Shown here: in pieces, positions 4,958-57,408 of the stretch
How the letters are laid out: the number at the start of each line of letters is the position of its first letter
Numbering within the stretch: position 1 is the stretch's first letter
Source: a virus
Virus record (IMG/VR): IMGVR_UViG_3300000530_000014
Coordinates: 4,968-68,967 of that record
Direction: 5' to 3' (one strand)
Length of the DNA: 64,000 bases
Translations under genes and position numbers: made by a program
The notes under the pieces: generated by a model
Told to the model about the DNA's origin: nothing
The model's database searches: none
What the model saw: only the letters and a program-made list of their open reading frames with translations

Positions 4958-5947
4958 TTAATTGGCCCAAACATCACCCCAATTTCCGGATAAAGATCCT
5001 TTAGCATAATCAGTAGCACGATTCTCAAAAAAGTTGGTATGTGTTGGTGCATTAATCATTTCTTCTACCCAAGGTAACGGATTTCTTTTTACTTTGAATA
5101 TACCTTTTAGTCCTAAAGAAATTAATCTTCTATCAGCTATATATCGAATATATTTCTTTACATCATCTGCTTCTAATTTTTCCATCGAACCCATAGAGAA
5201 AGCTAAATCAATAAATTTATCCTCAAGTTCTACCATTCTTTCAGCAATAGTATAAATTTTGGATTTTAATTCATCGTTCCAAATTTCTCTATTTTCTTCT
5301 ATATATGTTCTAAATAATTTGATCATTGATTCACAATGTTGTGTTTCATCAACGATTGACCAAGTAACGATTTGACCCATACCTTTCATCTTACCATTAC
5401 GAGGAAAATTCAATAACATAATGAATGAAGAAAATAATTGCATACCTTCTGTAAATGCACTAAACACTGCTATATGTGTTGCTGTATTTTCTTTTGTTGT
5501 ATTCTTAGATGAAATATCCATAACATAATCATGTTTCTCTTTCATTTCCGCATACTCAAGAAATTCATTATATGTTGTTTCTGGTAATCCTAATGTTTCA
5601 ATAAGATGTGAATAAGCAGCAATATGTAATGCTTCTCTTGCAGCAAATCCTAACAACATCATACGAACTTCTGGTTGAGGAAAATATGGAAGATAATTCT
5701 TAACATAACCGCCAGCTACATCAATATCACCTTGTGTGAAGAATCTAAAGATATTTGTTAAAAAATGTTTTTCCTCTTTGCTTAATTTCTTTTTCCAATC
5801 TTTCATATCCTCTAACATAGGCACTTCTGTATGTAACCAATGTGATTGTTCATGTTTCAACCATGAATCATATGCCCATGGATAACTGAACGGTTTAAAA
5901 TATGTTCTCTCATCAGATAAATTTAAATCTTTTGCTTTTTTAATCAT
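4958..5947 (-). CDS. nrdB: ribonucleotide reductase class Ia beta subunit
   Basis: FFTQGD, EALH, radical Tyr (AAYSHL), EGMQLF, DETQH, NFFE; start adjusted to MIKKAK. Confidence 0.95.
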   Translation of the reverse strand: MIKKAKDLNLSDERTYFKPFSYPWAYDSWLKHEQSHWLHTEVPMLEDMKDWKKKLSKEEKHFLTNIFRFFTQGDIDVAGGYVKNYLPYFPQPEVRMMLLGFAAREALHIAAYSHLIETLGLPETTYNEFLEYAEMKEKHDYVMDISSKNTTKENTATHIAVFSAFTEGMQLFSSFIMLLNFPRNGKMKGMGQIVTWSIVDETQHCESMIKLFRTYIEENREIWNDELKSKIYTIAERMVELEDKFIDLAFSMGSMEKLEADDVKKYIRYIADRRLISLGLKGIFKVKRNPLPWVEEMINAPTHTNFFENRATDYAKGSLSGNWGDVWAN

Positions 5948-28085: not shown

Positions 28086-28709
28086 TTAGCTTTGGAAAAG
28101 ATCTAAGGCTTGATTGTAGCGATTGGTGCGATCTTCGAGACCCAATGTGCCACCATTGATAGCACGTGTAACATGCTCGATATCACCATCATCGCTCTTG
28201 GCATTTAAATCGTGTGCTTTCCAGAAATAGCAGGCAGACTCTACAGCGCCGTCAGGTGTTGCACAGTACTCTACTGCTTCTTCCAGGCTCTTACCAATAC
28301 TGGCAGCAAAATGCTCGTAGTTGGTCTTGCCAGTCAACTGTATAAGTCCTCGACCATGGTAGCGCCACCCATCACCAGACTCTTCGTCGCCATTGCCCAT
28401 GCGATTGGCGTAAGCACAGTTAGCGATTTTTTCTGGATTATGTGCATATTCTTCTACAGTATCTGCTGAAAAATGGCTGGGCCATACACGCAGCAATGAT
28501 TCTGCGCGATAGTTCAAGTTTTCTTGTAGTGCTGTGTAGTCGGCTGATTCATGCGCGGTCTGTGCTATAAACATAGCCACACGATTGACGCTAGTGATCT
28601 CGTAGCGTGGTAGCACATCATTTAATGCTTGGAACCATTCGCTGGTTTTGGCATTATCGTGTAATAGTGTACGCAACTGATCTTCGGTAAAATTAAAATC
28701 AAAACTCAT
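28086..28709 (-). CDS. glycoside hydrolase family 19 endolysin, copy B
   Basis: FIAQTAHES, ENLNY, GDGWRYHGRGLIQLTGKTNY, TRAINGGTLGLEDR. Confidence 0.92.
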   Translation of the reverse strand: MSFDFNFTEDQLRTLLHDNAKTSEWFQALNDVLPRYEITSVNRVAMFIAQTAHESADYTALQENLNYRAESLLRVWPSHFSADTVEEYAHNPEKIANCAYANRMGNGDEESGDGWRYHGRGLIQLTGKTNYEHFAASIGKSLEEAVEYCATPDGAVESACYFWKAHDLNAKSDDGDIEHVTRAINGGTLGLEDRTNRYNQALDLFQS

Positions 28710-28747: not shown

Positions 28748-29305
28748 TTATCGGCGTATGCCTGCTAAATTTCTTAGAGTTTCTGTGTGATCGTTTTTAG
28801 GAGCACGTGTAGTAACTGGTATGCCTGCTGCTGTGCGCATCTCGTCGAGATCGGTCTTGTTGTTGATTCGATCGTAGTCTTTGGGAGTTGCAGGTATGAG
28901 ATCTTCCAGTGCTTCTAGGCTATACGGAGCTTGTTTGTGTGTCTTGTAGTAGCGCACACGCCAGTCGCTTAGTTTCTGATCAGTGACATTCATGAGATCG
29001 TGCATGAAATCGTCGATATCTTTGATTGATTCTGGTGCTCGTTCTAGCTCAATAAACACTAAGTAATCGCCGTCTTCCATTTCTCCAGAACTTAAGTCAG
29101 CATCAATGACCCAACTGTAGCCTTTTTCTGCGAAACTCACTAGATCCTCTGCGGGTTCTTTACCAGTGACTTTAAAGCTCAACACTATAACATCACGGTC
29201 ATCACCTAATTTACTTTGGAATTCGTCGCAGTGCAGTTCTGGGTGTACTAGTCTTTTGAGATCACCTTGTTCGAGACCTTCGAGGATATCACGCATTTTC
29301 TTCAC
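28748..29305 (-). CDS. hypothetical protein (possible head-associated)
   Basis: MKKMRDILEGLE start, ends LRNLAGI. Confidence 0.65.
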   Translation of the reverse strand: MKKMRDILEGLEQGDLKRLVHPELHCDEFQSKLGDDRDVIVLSFKVTGKEPAEDLVSFAEKGYSWVIDADLSSGEMEDGDYLVFIELERAPESIKDIDDFMHDLMNVTDQKLSDWRVRYYKTHKQAPYSLEALEDLIPATPKDYDRINNKTDLDEMRTAAGIPVTTRAPKNDHTETLRNLAGIRR

Positions 29306-29819
29306 CTGTGTCTAGATCTGGATTCTGTTGCAGATCGCTGTCTGCGCCAGTCTCGTATGCTTGATCGATGTCTTCCATGTCTACTGTACCTGATTCTAAT
29401 TCTAGCGCACCTTGTTTGATATCGTGCATGAGTTTTTTAGGCATGATGATTTCTACTAACCAAATTGGAGTATCAGTTAATCTCGGTACTCGAGTACCAG
29501 GTCTAAAATCTGTAGGATGTCTAACTTGTACTGGATGTTTAAAAAAATCCTGTCGATAGTTGACTTCGCAATCGTAGTCACTTAGACGTACGGCACCGCG
29601 TGGGTCCGGCATCTTAGCATAAGGCCACATGAATGTGCAACCTACAAAATATTTTTCATAATCGGGGCCTTTGACCAATTCCCCTGATTTCCAATTGGCA
29701 AATGAGTACAGATCCAGTTCATCTAGTACACGTTCAAAATCCATGAGAGAATCCACAACCGAATCGGTCATGAATATCTTTTTTGTATTGTCTAATAAAT
29801 CTTTAATATTTGCAGGCAT
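29289..29819 (-). CDS. hypothetical protein
   Basis: 176 aa, TAAATA 8 nt upstream of ATG. Confidence 0.65.
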   Translation of the reverse strand: MPANIKDLLDNTKKIFMTDSVVDSLMDFERVLDELDLYSFANWKSGELVKGPDYEKYFVGCTFMWPYAKMPDPRGAVRLSDYDCEVNYRQDFFKHPVQVRHPTDFRPGTRVPRLTDTPIWLVEIIMPKKLMHDIKQGALELESGTVDMEDIDQAYETGADSDLQQNPDLDTGEENA

Positions 29820-29865: not shown

Positions 29866-30513
29866 TTAAGGATTTCCTATTAGTTTTTCGGGAAATTTAC
29901 TGAAACTAACTTGGAAATTGACCCTTAGCCCCGACATATTTTCTACACTATGTATCACTCTTGTATCTAATAGATACCAACATTTTGCAGGCCCATTAAC
30001 TGATTTGATCAATTTTAGATGCGGTCCTCTGTTGACAGCTAGTCCAGGATCTCTAAAAACTGGATGACCTTCCTCTTGCCAAAAAGATAATGTAGTATTG
30101 CCACCGGTTTCTACATTATATAATAACACATACTTTCTTGTGGTATCTGTGTGTGGAAGTTGCTCGGTATCAAAAAACATAATTCCTGAATTATAATCAT
30201 CGAATTCGTCAATGATATTTTCACGGACCCAGTTTTCATATTCACTGGTAAATCTATGCCTGACATTTGGATTTGACGCCATTGGCTTTATCCAATTATA
30301 TTCTTGATTTTTCCAATCTGTCACTGTATCGACCCGCAAATAGTTCTTGTCGTCTTGCTTAAACAGGGGTTGTGCAGGACGATACACTTTATCAATTTTT
30401 TCTACTAGATGATCGGGCGGATGTGGTAAGTGATCTAAAACTATGTAATACCAATCAGTCTGTTGCATTGATGATCTCCTTACCCCAAAATGCAGAATTC
30501 CATAGTCGTTCAT
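29866..30513 (-). CDS. 2OG-Fe(II)/cupin-fold oxygenase-like protein
   Basis: LPHTD (HxD) ... distal IHSV, followed by LRVNFQVSF (conserved Arg). Confidence 0.6.
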   Translation of the reverse strand: MNDYGILHFGVRRSSMQQTDWYYIVLDHLPHPPDHLVEKIDKVYRPAQPLFKQDDKNYLRVDTVTDWKNQEYNWIKPMASNPNVRHRFTSEYENWVRENIIDEFDDYNSGIMFFDTEQLPHTDTTRKYVLLYNVETGGNTTLSFWQEEGHPVFRDPGLAVNRGPHLKLIKSVNGPAKCWYLLDTRVIHSVENMSGLRVNFQVSFSKFPEKLIGNP

Positions 30514-30688
30514 GTAAGAAATACCAGGAAAATACGATAATTAATTCTCCTAACGCCATTTTTGTTGCGAGATGTACATCGCCGTTAAGATACATAGATA
30601 ATGCAAACATAATTGACGATGTAGAAATCCTCCAGGTGATCGCTTTTACAAGGCTGCGTAGTCTAAATTCGTTAAATTTAATAGTCAT
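30455..30688 (-). CDS. DUF2061-like small membrane protein
   Basis: RSLVKAITWR...YFLHERLW signature. Confidence 0.8.
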   Translation of the reverse strand: MTIKFNEFRLRSLVKAITWRISTSSIMFALSMYLNGDVHLATKMALGELIIVFSWYFLHERLWNSAFWGKEIINATD

Positions 30689-30734
30689 AGTTATCCGTTA
30701 AAAAAATAATATAGATTTAATACTTAGTGGTAAG

Positions 30735-30754
30735 AAAAGCCCGCCGAAGCGGGC
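30735..30754 (-). terminator. intrinsic terminator after dctP-like gene
   Basis: GCCCGC-TTCG-GCGGGC-TTTT (UUCG tetraloop). Confidence 0.85.
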
Positions 30755-30764
30755 CTGGAGTTGA

Positions 30765-31709
30765 TTAAGAATTTTTGATTTTAGCTACTAGGCCGTCGGC
30801 AAAGTAGTTGTCGTACATGCTGTAGACTTCGCTAGTAACAGCTTTGAATTTAGCTAGCTCTTCTTCGGACATATGCACAACTTCAACACCTTTGGCTTTG
30901 CATTCTGCTAAGATATTGGGAATATCAGCAACGCTTTCACGACGTTCGGCGCGAGCAGCAACAAAAGCAGCTTTTGCTAGGATGTCCTGCACTTCTGCAG
31001 AGAACTGTGCAAAAAAGTCTTTGTTGACGATGATGCTGGTCAAGAACAGGCTGTGTGCTGTATCGTTGACTACTTTAAAGCTCTTGTATTGGTCTAATGG
31101 GAAAACACGCACATATGTGCTTTCGCCGGCATCAATAACACCTGCATCGGCTGCTTGGTTCATTTCTTCTAGGGCGATGTTTTCAAAGGGTTCTGCACCT
31201 AGCAGTTTAAATGTATCAACTGCCACTGGGCTACGGCTAGTACGAACACGTTGACCGCGCCAGGCTTCTACTGTATCTGCACGGAAGTTAGCAGGAACAA
31301 CACGATATCCACCTGAATATGTAAAGCTCATTGCTTTGATATTAGAGTTGGCACTTACACCTTCTAGCAATGATTGACCAATTTCACCTTCAAGCACACG
31401 ATCGGCATGTGAGTGATCTGTGAAAATAAAAGGTAAATCTAAAGCGTGTAAATCTTTGTTGTAGTCAGCTAACCATGTGGTATAGATGTGGCTCATTTCA
31501 ATAGCACCGCTGTCGATCAATGACATCAAGTCATTTTTTGTGATGCGTTTGCCATCGTTGTATTTGTTAGCATAGTCGGTCAAGCTCAATACTTCGATAT
31601 TGAACATACCGTTGGTTTTTTCGTTTACTTCTTTAGCGAAACGATCAGCTACTTTTAGAAACAAACCAATTGGTTCGTGTGCGATAACCCATTTAACATG
31701 ATGTGTCAT
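30765..31709 (-). CDS. TRAP-transporter DctP-like solute-binding protein lacking signal peptide
   Basis: LDLPFIF, GGYR, RGQRVRT (carboxylate-binding Arg), G..DAGEST, T.HSLF; begins MTHHVKWV with no hydrophobic leader. Confidence 0.85.
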   Translation of the reverse strand: MTHHVKWVIAHEPIGLFLKVADRFAKEVNEKTNGMFNIEVLSLTDYANKYNDGKRITKNDLMSLIDSGAIEMSHIYTTWLADYNKDLHALDLPFIFTDHSHADRVLEGEIGQSLLEGVSANSNIKAMSFTYSGGYRVVPANFRADTVEAWRGQRVRTSRSPVAVDTFKLLGAEPFENIALEEMNQAADAGVIDAGESTYVRVFPLDQYKSFKVVNDTAHSLFLTSIIVNKDFFAQFSAEVQDILAKAAFVAARAERRESVADIPNILAECKAKGVEVVHMSEEELAKFKAVTSEVYSMYDNYFADGLVAKIKNS

Positions 31710-31866
31710 TTTTTATTCCTTTAAAAGTAAAATATTAGTGATTTCGCTAGTAGATACTTCTACGTACGGCTCGGCGTTCTGCATGTTACACAGCAGTAAA
31801 AAGGTATTACCTTAGGCGTCGATTTAGATCCGGCGTCAGAGATGCTGGCGCTGCTAAGATTATTTA
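31710..31866 (-). promoter_or_regulatory. long 5' leader of dctP-like gene: late promoter, short hairpins, four CGCC repeats, possible 36-aa uORF
   Basis: TAAATA at 31866-31861; stems AAGGT/ACCTT, CTGC-TGT/ACA-GCAG, GTAGA/TCTAC; uORF 31870..31760. Confidence 0.5.
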
Positions 31867-31879
31867 TCATTTTTTCACA

Positions 31880-33175
31880 CTAAATTAATATTTGTGTCAA
31901 TTTGCAATCTTTTATTAAATTAATCTTTTCTTTAGGTCTACCAGTCTGTGTTTTATAATCCTTGTTATCAAAAGCCAGTTTAGGTTTAGGTATATTGCAG
32001 GATCCTATGTAATAAAAAGGACTAGTATTAGGAATAAACCCTACTTTTTGTCCCATTTGTTCGGAAAAAAACTTATCATCGATCTTGTCTGTTAAAAATT
32101 TCAATCCGTTCTCCCATACAGTGTAAATCTCGGTTCCCTGCAGGTTAGTGTAAAACCAATGATCCATTTCATTATAAAAACTATTAGTAGGTTTTGCTGT
32201 CTGCCAAGTATCTAGATCATAATCTGGGTAGATTATGCTTTTGACTAACCATTCGTATGCAGTACGATGTTGTATGCTGGTATTGGGGTAAGAAAATAAG
32301 TGCTGTAAATTATGATTTTGTGGTTGCTCAAAATAGTTACGCACCATATGTGCTTGCTTACAGATCATTTCTGGTAAATCGGGAGTCCAGTAGAATAATT
32401 CTGTGGTTATGTTTGTATAGTCACCGACTACCGGGCTTGGATGGTTTGCCTGTACATCCATAAAATATAGATACCAAGCTCCGTTGATGACAGTCAGTTT
32501 AGGTTTATCAACCCCGTATAAAGCGCAGATTTTCTTACCGGTGTCTGCGAGATTTCGCTGTTCTTTATTTCCTAGATTATCATGTTTAATACCGTGCCCG
32601 GGTTGGAACCAATCTCTAGTAGTAAATACCCAAGATTCATCTTTCATGTAATCGTCATTTAGCAGATTCTCGCTGTAGTCGTAAAAAGTAGTCTTGGTCT
32701 CAGGAAAGTTTTCAGAGATCCATTTAAACAACGGTAGTCCGGCAAATTTCCATTCACTGAGTGTATTTTCTGCTTTAGTATTGTAAGGATCATCTGTGAC
32801 CCCTTTGTCAGTTTGTTTAGGGTATCGGAAGATGACTTCATCGAGATGTATGCCATTGAGCAAGAAACTGAATATAGCCGTGGTGCTGTCTCCGCCCCCG
32901 CTGGCTTCAATCCTTATATAATCGTAAGAATCTCTTAATTGTTGTGCTCGTATACGATATAATTCTCTCAGTGACGGTACAGGTTCAATGGACCAATTAA
33001 AACTGGCGAATTCTCGATTATTGAAAATCCATTTTGGATATACATTTAATTCAGTGGCGCGCATTAATGCTGCTGGTTTAGAAAAAAATATTTCGTCGTT
33101 GACTCGGTAATATCCAAGTTTTTTGTTTTCTTCTATCTTCCTATATATAGATTTATCCATTGTTTTTTTACTCAA
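31880..33175 (-). CDS. PP-loop (AANH superfamily) ATP pyrophosphatase-like protein, paralogue 1
   Basis: IEASGGGDS PP-loop; GVDKP; full-length similarity to 33168..34382. Confidence 0.72.
   Translation of the reverse strand: MSKKTMDKSIYRKIEENKKLGYYRVNDEIFFSKPAALMRATELNVYPKWIFNNREFASFNWSIEPVPSLRELYRIRAQQLRDSYDYIRIEASGGGDSTTAIFSFLLNGIHLDEVIFRYPKQTDKGVTDDPYNTKAENTLSEWKFAGLPLFKWISENFPETKTTFYDYSENLLNDDYMKDESWVFTTRDWFQPGHGIKHDNLGNKEQRNLADTGKKICALYGVDKPKLTVINGAWYLYFMDVQANHPSPVVGDYTNITTELFYWTPDLPEMICKQAHMVRNYFEQPQNHNLQHLFSYPNTSIQHRTAYEWLVKSIIYPDYDLDTWQTAKPTNSFYNEMDHWFYTNLQGTEIYTVWENGLKFLTDKIDDKFFSEQMGQKVGFIPNTSPFYYIGSCNIPKPKLAFDNKDYKTQTGRPKEKINLIKDCKLTQILI
32844..32893. repeat. 50-nt exact duplicate of 34063..34112 inside the PP-loop paralogues
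   Basis: agatgtatgccattgagcaagaaactgaatatagccgtggtgctgtctcc occurs at both sites. Confidence 0.9.
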
Positions 33176-34382
33176 ACCTATCTTGTATTTTAACTTTTAT
33201 CATTCTTTCTTTAGCAGGAGTTGCATCTCCGATGCAGTAAAAAGGACTAAGGAAACCTACAAACCCTACAGGTCGTCCTAATTCATAATTAAAATATTTA
33301 GAGTCAATCATGTCTACCAGCAGTTGTTGCCCTGCTAGTTGTTTTTTGTATGCATCTGATTCGGAAAAATTTACTGCGAACCAATGATCCATTTCGTTGT
33401 AAAAACTATTAGTAGGCTTCGCTGTTTGGAAAGTCTGCGGATCGTAATCGGGATATATCAGCGGTTTTACAATCTGTTCATAGGTCGTCCTGTTTGAGAT
33501 ACTGCTGTTTGGCCATCGTAACAGGTACTGTAGATGTTGATTTTCGTGTCTCATGAACCAGTTTCTAATGATATGAGCCTGTTTTTGCGGTATAGCAGGC
33601 AAATCAGCGGTCCAATAAAAGTATTCGATTGATATATTTGTGTATCCTTCAGTTACAGGGTTGCTGTGGTTCGCCTGTAGATCTAGGAAGTATAGATACC
33701 ATTTGTTATCTTTGATACACATCTTAGGTTTATCGATACCATAAAGCACACAGATTTCTCGACCGGTATCAGCTAATTTCCTATGCTCGTTCATACCAAT
33801 TGGATCATGTTTAAATACATGAGCTATTTGGAAATAGTCTTTGCCTTTCAGTACCCAGGTATCATCAAAATCACAGTCTAGTATAAATTCGCTGTAGTCG
33901 TGTATGGTTATTTTAGTCTTAGGATAATTTTTTTCTATCCATTGTAACAAAGGTTTTGCAGCAAACCTAAACTCACTCAAGGTATTTTCCGGTCTAGTGT
34001 CATGAGGATTGTCAGTTACATCTTTTTCGCCTTTGCTTGGATATCTAAAAACAACTTCGTCTAGATGTATGCCATTGAGCAAGAAACTGAATATAGCCGT
34101 GGTGCTGTCTCCACCGCCACTGGCCTCTACTCGTATCCAATCATAGCGATCTCTTAGTTGTTGTGCTCTCTGACGATATAACTCTCTTATGTCGTCGGCT
34201 GGCTCCGTTGCCCAATCTAGCATTCCGAATATATCATTATTAAAATTCCAGTGCGGGAATTGATTAGTCTGTGTCGCTTCTATCAGGGCCTGGGATTTAA
34301 TATAGTGGATACGGTCTCCTACTGTATAAAATCCTAACTTAGGATCTTTTTTAAAATATTTTTCTGTTAAATCAATGGTCAT
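33168..34382 (-). CDS. PP-loop (AANH superfamily) ATP pyrophosphatase-like protein, paralogue 2
   Basis: VEASGGGDS PP-loop; GIDKP. Confidence 0.72.
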   Translation of the reverse strand: MTIDLTEKYFKKDPKLGFYTVGDRIHYIKSQALIEATQTNQFPHWNFNNDIFGMLDWATEPADDIRELYRQRAQQLRDRYDWIRVEASGGGDSTTAIFSFLLNGIHLDEVVFRYPSKGEKDVTDNPHDTRPENTLSEFRFAAKPLLQWIEKNYPKTKITIHDYSEFILDCDFDDTWVLKGKDYFQIAHVFKHDPIGMNEHRKLADTGREICVLYGIDKPKMCIKDNKWYLYFLDLQANHSNPVTEGYTNISIEYFYWTADLPAIPQKQAHIIRNWFMRHENQHLQYLLRWPNSSISNRTTYEQIVKPLIYPDYDPQTFQTAKPTNSFYNEMDHWFAVNFSESDAYKKQLAGQQLLVDMIDSKYFNYELGRPVGFVGFLSPFYCIGDATPAKERMIKVKIQDRFE

Positions 34383-35032
34383 TTACCTAATCTCTGTTGT
34401 CTTGTTGATTGACATCCTGCTAAGACTACATTGTCTAACCAGTGGTTGTCAATATATTTTACATACTTGTGATTAGCATCTTCTGTGATAAATCGAGATA
34501 ATTTTTCAGGATTTGTTTCAACGGGGAATCTTAGCGTCCTGCCTACCCAATTTATATAATGCTCGCGATGCAGGAAAAATGCTTCGTGGTCTAGAAAGTG
34601 CACAGGCAGTCCGCTGGGGATTAATATGTTATAGTAGTAATCCTGTGCAATAGGTGTGGTGTGTTCTTTTCTTACTCTCAACTGCTGTAGCTGATTTATA
34701 TTCTGATCACGTACTATCACAGCTATTTCTACTTCAACTCCGAATAACCGTGCACGTTTGGCTACTTCCAGTATTTTAGGTGTATAGCGCACACCGTCGA
34801 AGAAAAAAGGGCAACTGACATTAGCTAAAAAATATTCGCCATTGGCGAATTTATCGGCGGATAACTTTTCTGGGTCAACCCAGTATTCAGCAAAAGGTTC
34901 TTGATCGCTAGGAACCCAGTATTGATCCTTCAACTCCTCCCATCCCGAGACCTCAGGATGTAGGCTTAATATCCTGCTGAATAAGTGATTTCCTGACCCT
35001 TGGGGACCTGTGATGATCAATAGTTTTTTCAT
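34379..35032 (-). CDS. sulfotransferase/P-loop-fold protein
   Basis: ITGPQGSGNHL N-terminal loop, IVRD motif; paralogous to 35029..35670. Confidence 0.6.
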   Translation of the reverse strand: MKKLLIITGPQGSGNHLFSRILSLHPEVSGWEELKDQYWVPSDQEPFAEYWVDPEKLSADKFANGEYFLANVSCPFFFDGVRYTPKILEVAKRARLFGVEVEIAVIVRDQNINQLQQLRVRKEHTTPIAQDYYYNILIPSGLPVHFLDHEAFFLHREHYINWVGRTLRFPVETNPEKLSRFITEDANHKYVKYIDNHWLDNVVLAGCQSTRQQRLGK

Positions 35033-35670
35033 GGTTTTTGTTTAAAAATATGCCCGTAGTGATTACCTGCATCCAATGGGTTTTCTTCTACATATTTTAT
35101 ATATTTTGCATTGGCATCTTGTTCTAATATTTCATTGATTTTCGGGTTATCGTGCGCTATAGGAATGATCAGATCTAAAGATCTGAGATAGCTTGAACGA
35201 TAAAGATGCAGTAATTCGTAACTAAGGAAACTAGCTATCGGACGTAGATTTTCTAATTCCTCTAAGAACATAGGCAGAGTAGGCTCTGATCTTATCCTAG
35301 TCTGTTGTTTGTGTAAGATATTCTGATCTCTTCCTATGACTGCTATCTGTACCGCTATATCTAATGACATCAGTTGTTGCAGGAATCTTCGTATATCTAG
35401 GCGGTATAAAGGATTTTCCTCTGATCCCGGAATGCCCAACGGAACACTGATACCGGTCACATAATAATCGCTTTGATTCCAATCAAATGTTTTTAATAGT
35501 CCAGGATCGCGCCAGTATTCAGCAAATGGTTCACAGAATCTGTGTGGTTCCCAGTAGTTTTCTAATAGACTACGCCAACCGTATACTTGTGGATGTAGTG
35601 CAAATATCTTGCTCCAAAGATGATTTCCTGCACCCTGTGGTCCTAAAACCACTAGCATTTTTTTCTTCAT
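35029..35670 (-). CDS. sulfotransferase/P-loop-fold protein
   Basis: VLGPQGAGNHL, IGRD, FLSYE, DAN.KYIKY. Confidence 0.6.
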   Translation of the reverse strand: MKKKMLVVLGPQGAGNHLWSKIFALHPQVYGWRSLLENYWEPHRFCEPFAEYWRDPGLLKTFDWNQSDYYVTGISVPLGIPGSEENPLYRLDIRRFLQQLMSLDIAVQIAVIGRDQNILHKQQTRIRSEPTLPMFLEELENLRPIASFLSYELLHLYRSSYLRSLDLIIPIAHDNPKINEILEQDANAKYIKYVEENPLDAGNHYGHIFKQKP

Positions 35671-36341
35671 GCAATAGTTTTTTTAAGTTCTGTTAAAAAC
35701 TTTTGTGTCTGATCAGTGATAATACCGGTTAACTGTAGTGTAACACGAGGATGTTTACCGGCATTAGCGGTACAGTGCGGAACATTACGCCAATCAAAGG
35801 TATGCACTTCACCAGCTTTCCACCCACGATGATGATAGTTACCATACTCCCAAAACTGCCCTGGTTGCCAATCTGTCAGTTGTACAAAATAACGTCCTAC
35901 TAATTCAGGATGACTAGGAAACCATTTGTACAATTTGTCGATGTGTAGGTGGAACAGTTGTCCTGGCATCTGTACATGTATACGTGCCATTGAATCAACT
36001 AAGGCGAACGAATCTGCGATTTTTTGCAAGTTAGGACTTAATGTCCAATCTAGATTGGTTATAGTTACCTTAGGATCTATGCCCAATCTTTCTAGATCGT
36101 ACTCTTCATCTTCTAGTTCAGGCTTAGGTACATCAATTCCTGACCCTTTAAATCCCCGCGTTTCCCAGTTAGCCGGTTTACTACGTGTGATAATCTCTTC
36201 TATGTCAGAGGTAAGGTTAGATACATCAACATTACCTAGGTGTACAACGGTATCCCACCGTGGATCCATGCGATCAACATCAAAGTGATACGCACTTTTT
36301 TCCACCAGTTTGTCCCAGCTGCTTTTACGTTCTTGGCTCAT
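35667..36341 (-). CDS. AspH-like 2OG-Fe(II) oxygenase/cupin
   Basis: FHLHID (HxD) ... VPHCTAN, PRVTLQLTG; start adjusted to MSQERK. Confidence 0.7.
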   Translation of the reverse strand: MSQERKSSWDKLVEKSAYHFDVDRMDPRWDTVVHLGNVDVSNLTSDIEEIITRSKPANWETRGFKGSGIDVPKPELEDEEYDLERLGIDPKVTITNLDWTLSPNLQKIADSFALVDSMARIHVQMPGQLFHLHIDKLYKWFPSHPELVGRYFVQLTDWQPGQFWEYGNYHHRGWKAGEVHTFDWRNVPHCTANAGKHPRVTLQLTGIITDQTQKFLTELKKTIA

Positions 36342-36958
36342 ATGATTTTTACCCCTACATCTGATCTTATATAGTCTTGCTGATATTCCTGTGGAGGTTC
36401 TGTTATGTGTAGCGCACGACAAGCAGATAAATTATCATTGACTATGTAACCGCCATACTGATTCCAGGCTGTTAAGATATCGGCGTTTTGTCGCTTAATA
36501 TGTTCGGCCATGTGTTTTAAATCGATATAGTATTTGTTGTACAGTGGATAGGTGATATCAAAATGTCCGCATTTAACCCACCAACCTAGACAGGCATCGT
36601 CGTCTCTGTGCACTAAAATCACCGGACAGTCGGGCCAGTTTTTCTTTAGAAAGTCAACATGATGTGCAAAAACATGACTTTTGATTATGCGGACACCCGT
36701 GCCTGAGAATGGGCGATCGAATTCCTGCTCACACTCTTCTCGGGTATGTTGATCTAATCGATCAAACCAATCACCAAACTCCATACCTGGATCAAAGTAT
36801 GCGCCTAGATGCATGAGATCTAAGGTTCCCGGCGCATCATGATAATAAGTACGTGCTTCGGAATAATCACTTTGATCGAGGTCGGGACTGTAATAAATGT
36901 TCTTACAGACGCTGCTCCATTTTGATCCTGGGGCGCCTGCGATAAAAATGTATTTCAT
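36338..36958 (-). CDS. sulfotransferase/P-loop-fold protein
   Basis: FIAGAPGSKWS, IIKSH, ILVHRD resemble 5'-PSB, catalytic KSH and 3'-PB elements. Confidence 0.6.
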   Translation of the reverse strand: MKYIFIAGAPGSKWSSVCKNIYYSPDLDQSDYSEARTYYHDAPGTLDLMHLGAYFDPGMEFGDWFDRLDQHTREECEQEFDRPFSGTGVRIIKSHVFAHHVDFLKKNWPDCPVILVHRDDDACLGWWVKCGHFDITYPLYNKYYIDLKHMAEHIKRQNADILTAWNQYGGYIVNDNLSACRALHITEPPQEYQQDYIRSDVGVKII

Positions 36959-36959
36959 A

Positions 36960-37508
36960 TTATCCTCTTAGAAAATCTTCTATTTCTTCTGGTAACCAAG
37001 GTTTAATCATGCGTTCAGGATGCCAGGTAACGCCTGCGATTTTTCCATCTATCCATGATTCGACATTACCGTCGTCATCTAAGGCCAGTATCTTCCCAGA
37101 AGTGTGTATTCGAGAAATAGTTTGATTATGATAACTGTTTACTTCTTGTGCTGACCCACGATACCATATATTATGCACGGTATCTGAGTGTCTGTCAACT
37201 GGTACGACTGATCCACCTAATAGATCTATTAATAAAAAACTTCCATGACAGACACCAATGATAGGTTTTGATTGTTTGAGCATTTCAGCGGAAAGTTTTG
37301 TTTCAACAGTACGACGTAATACGCTGTCGTCGCCGCCGGTGATGATTAATAGATCTATACTATCTGCTAGTTTTTGGAAATCTTGTTTTAAATTGTTTGG
37401 AATAAAAGTAAGCATATGATCCTCGAGATAAGCATACCAGCTTTGATCTAAAGAATCATATGCTCTGTTGCGATGATATAGTATGCGTTGACTCAATCCT
37501 ATTTTCAT
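36960..37508 (-). CDS. class I glutamine amidotransferase / gamma-glutamyl hydrolase (peptidase C26-like)
   Basis: ITGGDD, IGVCHG (nucleophile Cys), VNSYH, WHPE (His-Glu). Confidence 0.88.
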   Translation of the reverse strand: MKIGLSQRILYHRNRAYDSLDQSWYAYLEDHMLTFIPNNLKQDFQKLADSIDLLIITGGDDSVLRRTVETKLSAEMLKQSKPIIGVCHGSFLLIDLLGGSVVPVDRHSDTVHNIWYRGSAQEVNSYHNQTISRIHTSGKILALDDDGNVESWIDGKIAGVTWHPERMIKPWLPEEIEDFLRG

Positions 37509-38515
37509 TATAGTTTTTCTAATAGATTACAAAAATCTCTGGTATTCTTTGGCAGAATGTTGAGATTATAACATTTTATTTCAAATCCACGATCTCTAAG
37601 TGTTTTTTGTATCCACGCCTCGTCGATTATCGATAGAGAAATATGTTCCCAACTATAATCTTCTTGATTTAAGATTTTGTTAACAATAGTCTGGCATTCG
37701 TTATCTCTATTGATATAAAACTGTTTTTTGAGCCATTCCTGCCTGATGTATTCTATTTCGTGATCGCTTACATTCTGCATATCGATTTCAAAAAAAGACA
37801 GTACAGTTTTTATGTAATTTTTAAAATCAGATTTAATACTACTAAGTGGAATAAAAATTACATCATTTGTTACAATCGACTTCTGCGCATATTGAAAAGA
37901 TGAAATTTCTACCTCAGATCTTGAAAACCAGTACAAGGATAATAATTCTCTTAATTCCCAGTTACCGAAATCGTCAACATTTCCTTTATTCCAAGCTCTA
38001 ATATTTTCAGTATCTACCTCTATTTGTATGTATGCTTTTAATCTATCTATTATATCAAAATGCATCGAAGGCAAGTACTTTTTCTGATATCCGAGACAGG
38101 AATAATCTTCATTGAATACCTCATCACTTAGAAATGATTTAGTAAAACCATTATTTTCTTTCCATAATACAGATCCCGAATCGGGGTACAAAATTAATAT
38201 TTTATTAAAATGTTTAATTAAAAATTCAATATCATCAATAATTACTTGAGCCATTCCGTATGTATGACACCGTTTGTTTTGATTAATTCCCTCAAATAGA
38301 TTTGGATGTATTCTAGAAAATTTAAATTTATTATTCAGTCTGATATGTTCAAATAATTTTTCTTTGGGTATAAAAAAATTGCCCTTAAATTTATGACTAT
38401 TTCCATTTTCGTTAAAAGGTAATGATGTACGCACACCATCGAAATAATTAACTAACCATTCAGTGAATGTTCCGTAGCATCCGCCAGGATAATAGATTAG
38501 ATTTTGATGTTCCAT
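37508..38515 (-). CDS. hypothetical protein, possibly sulfotransferase-like fold
   Basis: YYPGGCYGTF N-terminal loop, SRIHP; markedly AT-rich. Confidence 0.5.
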   Translation of the reverse strand: MEHQNLIYYPGGCYGTFTEWLVNYFDGVRTSLPFNENGNSHKFKGNFFIPKEKLFEHIRLNNKFKFSRIHPNLFEGINQNKRCHTYGMAQVIIDDIEFLIKHFNKILILYPDSGSVLWKENNGFTKSFLSDEVFNEDYSCLGYQKKYLPSMHFDIIDRLKAYIQIEVDTENIRAWNKGNVDDFGNWELRELLSLYWFSRSEVEISSFQYAQKSIVTNDVIFIPLSSIKSDFKNYIKTVLSFFEIDMQNVSDHEIEYIRQEWLKKQFYINRDNECQTIVNKILNQEDYSWEHISLSIIDEAWIQKTLRDRGFEIKCYNLNILPKNTRDFCNLLEKL

Positions 38516-57379: not shown

Positions 57380-57408
57380 ATTATATATTTATGGTAATTA
57401 TTGGTCAA
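57380..57408 (-). promoter_or_regulatory. sigma70-type promoter with embedded TAAATA
   Basis: TTGACC-N17-TATAAT. Confidence 0.65.

Follow-up and report, generated by a model that had tools for sequence, protein, structure and literature searches.

An apparently new structured RNA family, most likely an mRNA leader for exchangeable accessory genes, in uncultured jumbo phages

Structured RNAs borne by phages and located in 5' untranslated regions have been described before, including the PhotoRC-I/II, manA and wcaG motifs of cyanophages and the glutamine riboswitches, all of which are Rfam families (Weinberg et al. 2010, PMC2864571). Here we describe an element found in a stretch of 64,000 nucleotides of viral DNA (IMG/VR record IMGVR_UViG_3300000530_000014, positions 4,968 to 68,967; this whole stretch is referred to as the window), where it lies on the minus strand between a PP-loop-like gene and a gene for a solute-binding protein of the DctP family. 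Like PhotoRC-I/II, manA and wcaG (PMC2864571), it is a covarying phage RNA element located 5' of host-type metabolic or transport genes and it was recognised via comparative genomics of metagenomic phage DNA. Unlike them, it has no match in Rfam 15, it belongs to another lineage of uncultured phages of about 290-375 kb, and it is composed of four tandem hairpins with a four-fold ACGCC/GACG repeat and without an evident ligand or expression platform. On the whole, the data strongly support an apparently new family of structured RNAs, most likely the leader of late mRNAs for exchangeable accessory genes.

Three other kinds of systems were compared with the element. HK022 putL/putR and lambda nutL/nutR are promoter-proximal antitermination RNAs that contain two hairpins or a boxA/boxB pair. 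The element is like them in its position right after a promoter-like box, in its one or two copies per genome, in combining hairpins with conserved unpaired bases and in its free distance to the gene; it differs from them in having no similarity of sequence or fold, in its four hairpins and in that tandem cassettes have a separate copy for every gene. The PeSL cassettes in the hyperplastic regions of T4-type phages are reportedly numerous, with sigma-70 early promoters and a single terminator-like stem-loop. As is said of PeSL, a promoter together with a structured element heads variable accessory genes here and may aid their shuffling, whereas our element occurs one or two times in a genome, lies behind a late-type box and consists of four hairpins joined by invariant junctions. 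Guanidine-II (mini-ykkC) RNAs carry ACGR in the loops of two small hairpins, and they share with the element the tandem hairpins without a closing helix and the repeated ACG-containing element; however, the ACGCC of our element is located in the junctions and in the lower stem of the first hairpin, and the Rfam model of mini-ykkC gave no match.

The Rfam 15 search of the whole window at gathering thresholds gave no match, in agreement with an earlier reading made from the letters of the window only (the sequence-only reading), which could assign the region to no Rfam family. A permissive scan of 31650-31950 (to E = 10) returned only chance hits to small nucleolar and long non-coding RNAs, with 13-16 bits and E of 5-8. 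Literature searches found no description of this motif, and it is apparently undescribed, having no name, description or Rfam entry. A catalogue from the same data source and of the same kind of object comprises 8,495 structured-RNA candidates from IMG/VR, 879 of them positioned no more than 25 nt 5' of a gene (Fremin, Bhatt and Kyrpides 2023, PMC10690425). Its text mentions neither DctP nor TctC, and the motif may be listed there anonymously under a number.

Conservation and covariation of four hairpins

The element lies in a non-coding intergenic gap of 170 nt (31710-31879, minus strand), which extends from the TAG stop codon (31880-31882) of a 431-aa gene to the ATG (31709) of the DctP gene. 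All genes around it are on the minus strand. The gap is the longest in the co-directional cluster at 27-39 kb, and its GC content is 0.49 at 31750-31849, compared with 0.25-0.29 in the AT-rich spacers on either side. It was these properties, together with a TAAATA box, four CGCC motifs, three short stems (AAGGT/ACCTT followed by TTT, CTGC..GCAG and GTAGA/TCTAC) and a 36-aa open reading frame (ORF), that had drawn attention in the sequence-only reading. We found all of them in place on the minus strand and each of the three stems covaries across relatives, while a fourth stem (P1, GCGCCAG/CTGACGC), absent from that reading, is added here.

Folded singly, the region has a minimum free energy of -26.2 kcal/mol with z = +1.16 relative to shuffles, that is, it is no more stable than shuffled sequences, so that the case rests on comparison with other sequences. 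We compared the leader and the 36-aa peptide with 49 IMG/VR loci containing close DctP homologues (66-84% identity) by blastn-short and tblastn and found no similarity; the gene context of these loci differs from that of the window, and the element is present in only two of them (L034 and L048). The informative relatives were gathered via the upstream PP-loop gene rather than via DctP. In many of these relatives the PP-loop gene is followed at a distance of about 150 nt by a DctP gene of only 35-47% identity, and the intervening gaps can be aligned. A regular-expression search detected the element in 20 of 27 such loci (L051-L077), and a 17-sequence MAFFT alignment was built from the relatives, with a covariance model named R1. 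We then scanned IMG/VR with a pattern for the 5' half of the element, which gave at least 120 entries. Among the matches listed, R1 recognised 64 in the first 100 of these loci, with 45-125 bits, and 39 more in the remaining loci and the window. The joint R1 alignment contains at least 95 matches with at least 91 distinct sequences, scoring 45-131 bits, from IMG/VR phage contigs; counts out of 91 below refer to the 91 distinct sequences among the matches listed. In the window, the full R1 match, which includes the box, the four-hairpin RNA and a short 3' flank, is located at 31738..31875 on the minus strand (125 bits, E = 4e-29) and is the sole one in the window and in the entire 70-kb contig.

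In the alignment of the 91 distinct sequences, 95.4% of the 1844 cells that make up the four hairpins (21 pairs) are paired. Changes on both sides were observed for 18 of the 21 pairs, in 499 cells, and there are 59 additional pair types. Covariation scored 0.652; sliding the 3' partners by 1-3 columns lowered the score to 0.131 or less, and no shuffle out of 500 attained the observed value. In addition, plain MAFFT alignments with RNAalifold, without a covariance model, recovered P1 and P2 and, separately, P3 and P4, all with compensatory changes. Both sequence and structure, whose conservation among homologous loci the sequence-only reading had proposed to check, are common to these loci, and the covariation is strong.

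The copy proper, a member of this 91-sequence family, spans 31746-31854 on the minus strand. It begins with GCA and hairpin P1 (31833..31854), in which 31845-31851 pairs with 31833-31839; P1 is paired in 99.5% of cells; of its six pairs, three covary (AU/GC/GU) while the other three are invariant, and an internal C-A mismatch (31848 with 31836) is invariant, being kept in all 91 listed copies. Junction J1/2 (31814..31832) consists of CGGA, a variable segment of 7-11 nt and GACGCC-U, and its CGG and GACG are invariant in the 17-sequence alignment and at least 90% conserved in the 91 sequences. Hairpin P2 (31801..31813; AAGGU/ACCUU with loop AAU) is 100% paired, with compensatory changes in four of four modelled pairs (GC/AU/CG/UA); its stem is only 4-6 bp long and is followed by 3-5 U and then AC. 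UUUAC and hairpin P3 follow (31779..31800), where 31790-31796 pairs with 31779-31786, U 31783 is bulged and the C of UUUAC opens the stem; 90% of the P3 cells are paired and all seven modelled pairs show compensatory changes. Junction J3/4 (31764..31778) reads AACGCC, 2-6 variable nucleotides and CCGUA, of which ACGCC and CCGT are invariant. The last hairpin, P4 (31746..31763; GUAGA/UCUAC, then the conserved UAGC), is paired in 93% of cells, again with compensatory changes in four of four modelled pairs. The remainder of the gap (31710..31745) is an AU-rich, non-conserved spacer that cannot be aligned between copies and contains the Shine-Dalgarno sequence of DctP (AAGGAA, about 31716-31721).

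Even in relatives whose flanking proteins are only 35-65% identical, the nucleotides of the junctions between hairpins are still invariant (GCA-ACGCC, GACGYCGGA, GACGC, UUUAC, AACGCC, CCGU and AGC), and in the 17-sequence alignment the blocks TAAATA, GCA-CGCC, GACG-CGG, GACG, TTT, ACGCC and CCGT stand between variable stems. The ACGCC/GACG element is thereby repeated four-fold, at intervals that differ with the lengths of the hairpins in between. When all column pairs were scanned for mutual information, the four hairpins alone emerged, with no long-range covariation or pseudoknot; nor was there support for a helix that would close the RNA by pairing its 5' GCA with its 3' AGC flank. Pairings of ACG with CGU (paired by RNAalifold), CGG with CCG and UUAC with GUAA are conceivable, and as their bases are invariant, covariation is uninformative about them. 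On the strand of the downstream gene, 44 G-U pairs were counted versus 20 A-C pairs, an excess that lends modest support to an RNA transcribed from that strand. Taken together, we consider it nearly certain that this is a real conserved structured nucleic-acid element.

The same comparison bears on the 36-aa ORF (31760..31870, minus strand), for which the sequence-only reading had offered two roles, a cysteine-sensing attenuator and a precursor peptide for the enzymes of the cluster. An ATG-initiated frame of 36 codons with CCxxC does exist in the window. However, no Shine-Dalgarno sequence precedes it, the promoter-like box overlaps with its ATG, and tblastn with the peptide found no relative in the 49 DctP loci. 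An ATG ORF of at least 30 aa covers the element in only 13 of the 91 listed copies, in differing frames and at differing offsets, and stops interrupt all three sense frames in 63 of 86 copies. By its length, the stretch from GCA to CCGT is spread over the three mod-3 classes as 37/27/22, hence it is not kept to multiples of three. 'FYCCVTCRTP' recurs only where the frame reads the conserved UUUAC-P3-AACGCC segment, and judged from the aligned copies CCxxC is a mere translation of this RNA segment. Both peptide roles are refuted by these comparative data and retain practically no probability; no frame is conserved, we judged the ORF to be non-coding, and its annotation as a gene is not warranted.

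Distribution among phages and the genes behind the element

Among GenBank phages (50,697 records), no match was found for the 2.5-kb region, the upstream protein or the element. R1 was also run on 100 pattern loci from 185,579 bacterial and archaeal genomes and gave no match among those listed; the bacterial pattern matches listed are chance matches in GC-rich genomes. The bacterial and viral scans together demonstrate a strong enrichment in phages, though they do not prove that bacteria lack the element. One or two copies are present in each of six phage records (316-374 kb; CheckV completeness 89-100%), and in the cases with two copies (L065, L121 and L086) every copy precedes its own gene. 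A related record of 289 kb has no copy, and its PP-loop gene abuts a virion gene with no gene between; a complete phage of 171 kb carrying a close DctP homologue also has no copy. Among the matches listed, the element is restricted to one lineage of uncultured jumbo phages of about 290-375 kb, known only from metagenomes.

A same-strand ORF follows 89 of the 91 listed copies, and the other two copies are at contig ends. The ORF mostly starts 10-45 nt after the model match; measured from the end of the match, which takes in some 10 nt of 3' flank, the start codon lies at -14 to +216 nt across copies. We classified the downstream genes by protein clustering and Pfam scans. DctP (26 copies) and TctC (24 copies), both carboxylate-type binding proteins, account for more than half of them. 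The remainder is heterogeneous and includes the PP-loop ATPase family to which the window's own upstream gene belongs (9 copies), DUF2061 (5), hexapeptide acyltransferase (4), SBP_bac_8, fatty-acid desaturase, TauD and porin (3 each), TctA, tryptophan halogenase and an Asp/Arg hydroxylase-like protein (1 each), and several unknown proteins. The TctC and porin cargo would make Burkholderiales-like bacteria candidate hosts. PP-loop ATPase genes adjoin the element in about two thirds of the loci, with a homologue at most 1.5 kb upstream in 30 of 79 loci and at most 4 kb downstream in 34 of 89.

In the window the downstream gene encodes a DctP-family (TRAP) solute-binding protein of 314 aa (30765..31709, minus strand; Pfam PF03480, E = 6e-46). 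It has no signal peptide, and the PF03480 profile begins at residue 19. In fact, all 19 full-length DctP proteins behind the element begin at the mature fold without a signal peptide, while signal peptides are present in those of the TctC, SBP_bac_8 and porin families. The window DctP is 66-84% identical to DctP proteins of another phage group (records of about 170 kb without the element) and only 35-47% identical to those of the syntenic jumbo-phage relatives. Being closer to the other group, this ORF was probably swapped behind a retained leader, which suggests gene replacement by exchange between phage lineages. In a tree of the element itself the gene families are interleaved, which is weak evidence as the tree is based on 135 nt.

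Such exchange could also mean that the element works as DNA, i.e. as a recombination hot spot or cassette junction, an origin or a packaging signal, with hairpins forming in single-stranded DNA. The highly variable gene behind a constant element, the interleaved families and the replaced DctP of the window would all fit. However, the compensatory changes in four separate short hairpins and the surplus of G-U pairs on the strand of the gene speak for RNA, the element is always oriented like the gene behind it, and homology-driven exchange would be a by-product of conservation and not its cause. We therefore regard a role at the level of DNA as very unlikely.

The element marks the head of the most freely exchanged cassettes, which include three solute-binding families, porins, oxygenases and PP-loop ATPases, and it can serve as an anchor for finding accessory-gene islands.

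Two side observations were made on DctP genes. In three relatives (L071:2742-3700, L072:5368-6323 and L075:6262-7214) DctP is broken at a common position into two overlapping ORFs (about 157 and 161 aa) that each match one half of PF03480, which may be a conserved split gene or a common frameshift. In two loci of the other phage group (L022:4979-5977 and L039:5013-6008), a second, divergent DctP paralogue (30-33% identity) is located right after the first.

The promoter-like box and the possible mode of action

T4 late promoters have the consensus TATAAATA, and transcription starts about 6 nt downstream of it. A T4-like ATAAATA box, a candidate late promoter resembling TATAAATA, is located at 31861..31867 on the minus strand, 6 nt 5' of the first conserved RNA nucleotide. 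The sequence [AC]TAAATA is conserved in 90 of the 91 listed copies; in 89 of 91 its end lies 4-7 nt 5' of GCA. By analogy with the T4 spacing, we infer that the RNA begins at or beside GCA. On the coding strand of the window, 12 of 16 ATAAATA boxes are in non-ORF DNA, which makes up 11.7% of the window (binomial P of about 7e-9); 8 of the 12 lie 12-45 nt ahead of a start codon, and one box-headed gene matches a PHROG virion-protein family. Compared with these, the box-to-start distance of 158 nt at DctP is exceptional, so that the leader would be about 150 nt long where other late leaders in the window are short.

Besides the one at DctP, ATAAATA boxes on the minus strand have their first base at 57392, 55167, 49360, 46058, 29834, 23973, 20974, 18282 and 14138; these nine are in non-ORF DNA or gene junctions, mostly shortly 5' of a start codon. 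The heptamer is rarer than chance overall (22 found versus 35 expected), yet it is concentrated in non-ORF DNA. In several loci (L148:1353-1415, L149, L155:2346-2407, L163, L169, L129, L053 and L134), a near-consensus sigma-70 promoter (TTGACA, 17-18 nt, TATAAT) was noticed in the P4 loop or just 3' of P4.

From these features we propose that the element forms the 5' end of a late mRNA and a leader of about 150 nt for the following gene, here the DctP without a signal peptide, and that it would act in cis on the downstream transcript. The DctP unit would end at its own intrinsic terminator (30732..30755, minus strand; GGCCCGC-UUCG-GCGGGCU, then UUUCUU), which was identified both by direct reading and by a terminator scan. 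The hairpins may be a scaffold that presents the ACGCC/GACG repeats and the C-A mismatch to a trans-acting factor, most likely an RNA-binding protein encoded by phage or host, which would set the elongation, stability or translation of the accessory-gene cassette. We assign a probability of roughly 0.7 to a cis-acting mRNA leader. The full mechanism, with a protein as the recognised partner, is tentative and falls somewhat short of an even chance. Structured leaders with invariant junctions and such covariation are usually functional, as riboswitches, ribozymes or protein operators, and the proposal predicts that the accessory islands are expressed late from a dedicated leader. The compact RNA of about 110 nt is suited to fishing for a ligand or protein and could reveal the role of the cytoplasmic DctP and the PP-loop module.

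Several points weigh against this proposal. The close DctP homologues in other phages lack the element in 47 of 49 cases, and thus expressing DctP does not in itself require it. No candidate for the binding protein came to light, and invariant junctions with variable stems fit a metabolite aptamer or a ribozyme equally well. Where a sigma-70-like promoter is present in or beside P4, the downstream gene may be transcribed early without the leader. The 5' end, the action in cis, the nature of the partner and even the existence of the element as RNA rather than single-stranded DNA are inferences, and the pair counts of the 91 sequences come from a model-fitted alignment, while the model-free checks cover fewer sequences.

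The alternative of a metabolite riboswitch deserves the closest comparison, since the sequence-only reading had proposed a new cis-regulatory RNA, either riboswitch or protein-binding. The novelty, the structure with its covariation and the same-strand 5' position agree with a cis-regulatory RNA of either kind; no expression platform was found. The aptamer would recognise a small molecule, perhaps a carboxylate tied to the DctP, TctC or PP-loop ATPase module. Invariant junctions with freely covarying stems are typical of aptamers, and the genes downstream are coherent in part, many of them serving solute binding or uptake (26 DctP, 24 TctC, 3 SBP_bac_8, 3 porins and 1 TctA), with 9 PP-loop ATPase-like genes, 5 DUF2061 and oxygenases dependent on 2-oxoglutarate or O2 among the others; moreover, there is the PP-loop gene beside the element in about two thirds of the loci. 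However, a consensus scan of 30500-33300 found no terminator in the leader, the only terminator-like site being the one after DctP. Over 74 copies, the Shine-Dalgarno and start region had a predicted accessibility of 0.515, against 0.500 when the element was shuffled, which is no difference, and masking of the ribosome-binding site by the pyrimidine-rich 3' arm of P2, which we had considered, did not differ from shuffled controls either. The spacer before the gene is constant neither in length nor in sequence and at times has its own promoter, there is no closing helix, desaturase, halogenase and acetyltransferase cargo fits no single ligand, and the 100 bacterial loci listed contained no copy. 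A classical riboswitch is thus not shown by these predictions. We consider doubtful both this alternative and its wider form, a new phage-only aptamer for a metabolite of the PP-loop, signal-less DctP and DUF2061 module or an RNA acted on by PP-loop ATPases. If either were true, jumbo phages would deploy uptake or binding proteins under late control, and the element would offer a handle on the chemistry of the PP-loop/DctP/DUF2061 module seen in hundreds of phages.

A protein partner is favoured over a classical riboswitch because no platform was found and because a four-fold repeat is placed between hairpins of variable length; the lack of a closing helix and of long-range covariation would also fit a protein. 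This indirect evidence favours recognition by a protein or by RNA polymerase, with a riboswitch, a ribozyme or a put-like element as the alternatives.

For RNA polymerase, the relevant model is a promoter-proximal RNA like HK022 put or lambda nut that renders late transcription resistant to terminators. The element is directly 3' of the promoter-like box in one or two copies per genome, such an RNA needs no platform and tolerates a variable distance to the gene, and in the window the strong terminator after DctP is followed by co-directional virion and endolysin-like genes. However, the analogy comes without likeness to put or nut, a recognisable terminator occurs within 120 nt of the downstream gene in only 15 of 69 cases, many ATAAATA boxes of the window have no element, and tandem cassettes with a copy for each gene would be needless for a processive signal. 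We regard this alternative as unlikely.

The RNA might also have a job of its own, as a self-cleaving ribozyme that would trim the mRNA of the cassette, a small RNA or decoy acting in trans, or a molecule that guides the neighbouring PP-loop ATPases or is their substrate; tRNA-modifying enzymes belong to the PP-loop superfamily. Unpaired bases that do not vary and the few copies per genome would suit such a function, no terminator separates the upstream gene from the element, so read-through transcripts would contain it, and PP-loop genes with the SGGGDS motif are adjacent in many loci. On the other hand, there is no terminator after P4 and hence no discrete small RNA is predicted, no Rfam ribozyme family matches, and the link to PP-loop genes may be plain synteny. 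An independent RNA of this kind seems improbable to us.

Neighbouring genes in the window

All of the following genes for which a strand is given are on the minus strand. The PP-loop-like gene upstream of the element (31880-33175, 431 aa) is preceded by a tandem paralogue (33168-34382), and neither belongs to a Pfam family. Both proteins, of about 400 aa, carry the SGGGDS PP-loop motif near residue 90, which supports a weak QueC/PP-loop lead from the protein atlas; comparison of the upstream 431-aa protein with solved structures gave no match. Behind the DctP terminator lies a gene for a DUF2061 membrane protein of 77 aa (30455-30688, minus strand; PF09834, E = 1e-12), which is under the usual ORF length cut-off. 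Further downstream, two matches to PHROG virion-protein families (28748-29305 and 29289-29819) are located in the same co-directional block as a gene for a glycoside hydrolase of family 19 with the chitinase class I fold (28086-28709, minus strand), probably an endolysin.

On the other side of the element there are two paralogous P-loop proteins with the motif GPQG[SA]GNH (34379-35032 and 35029-35670), a weak sulfotransferase-like protein (36338-36958) and a class-I glutamine amidotransferase (36960-37508), all on the minus strand. Judging from these assignments, the cluster at 34379-38515 together with the PP-loop pair looks like a pathway modifying a small molecule or a polymer.

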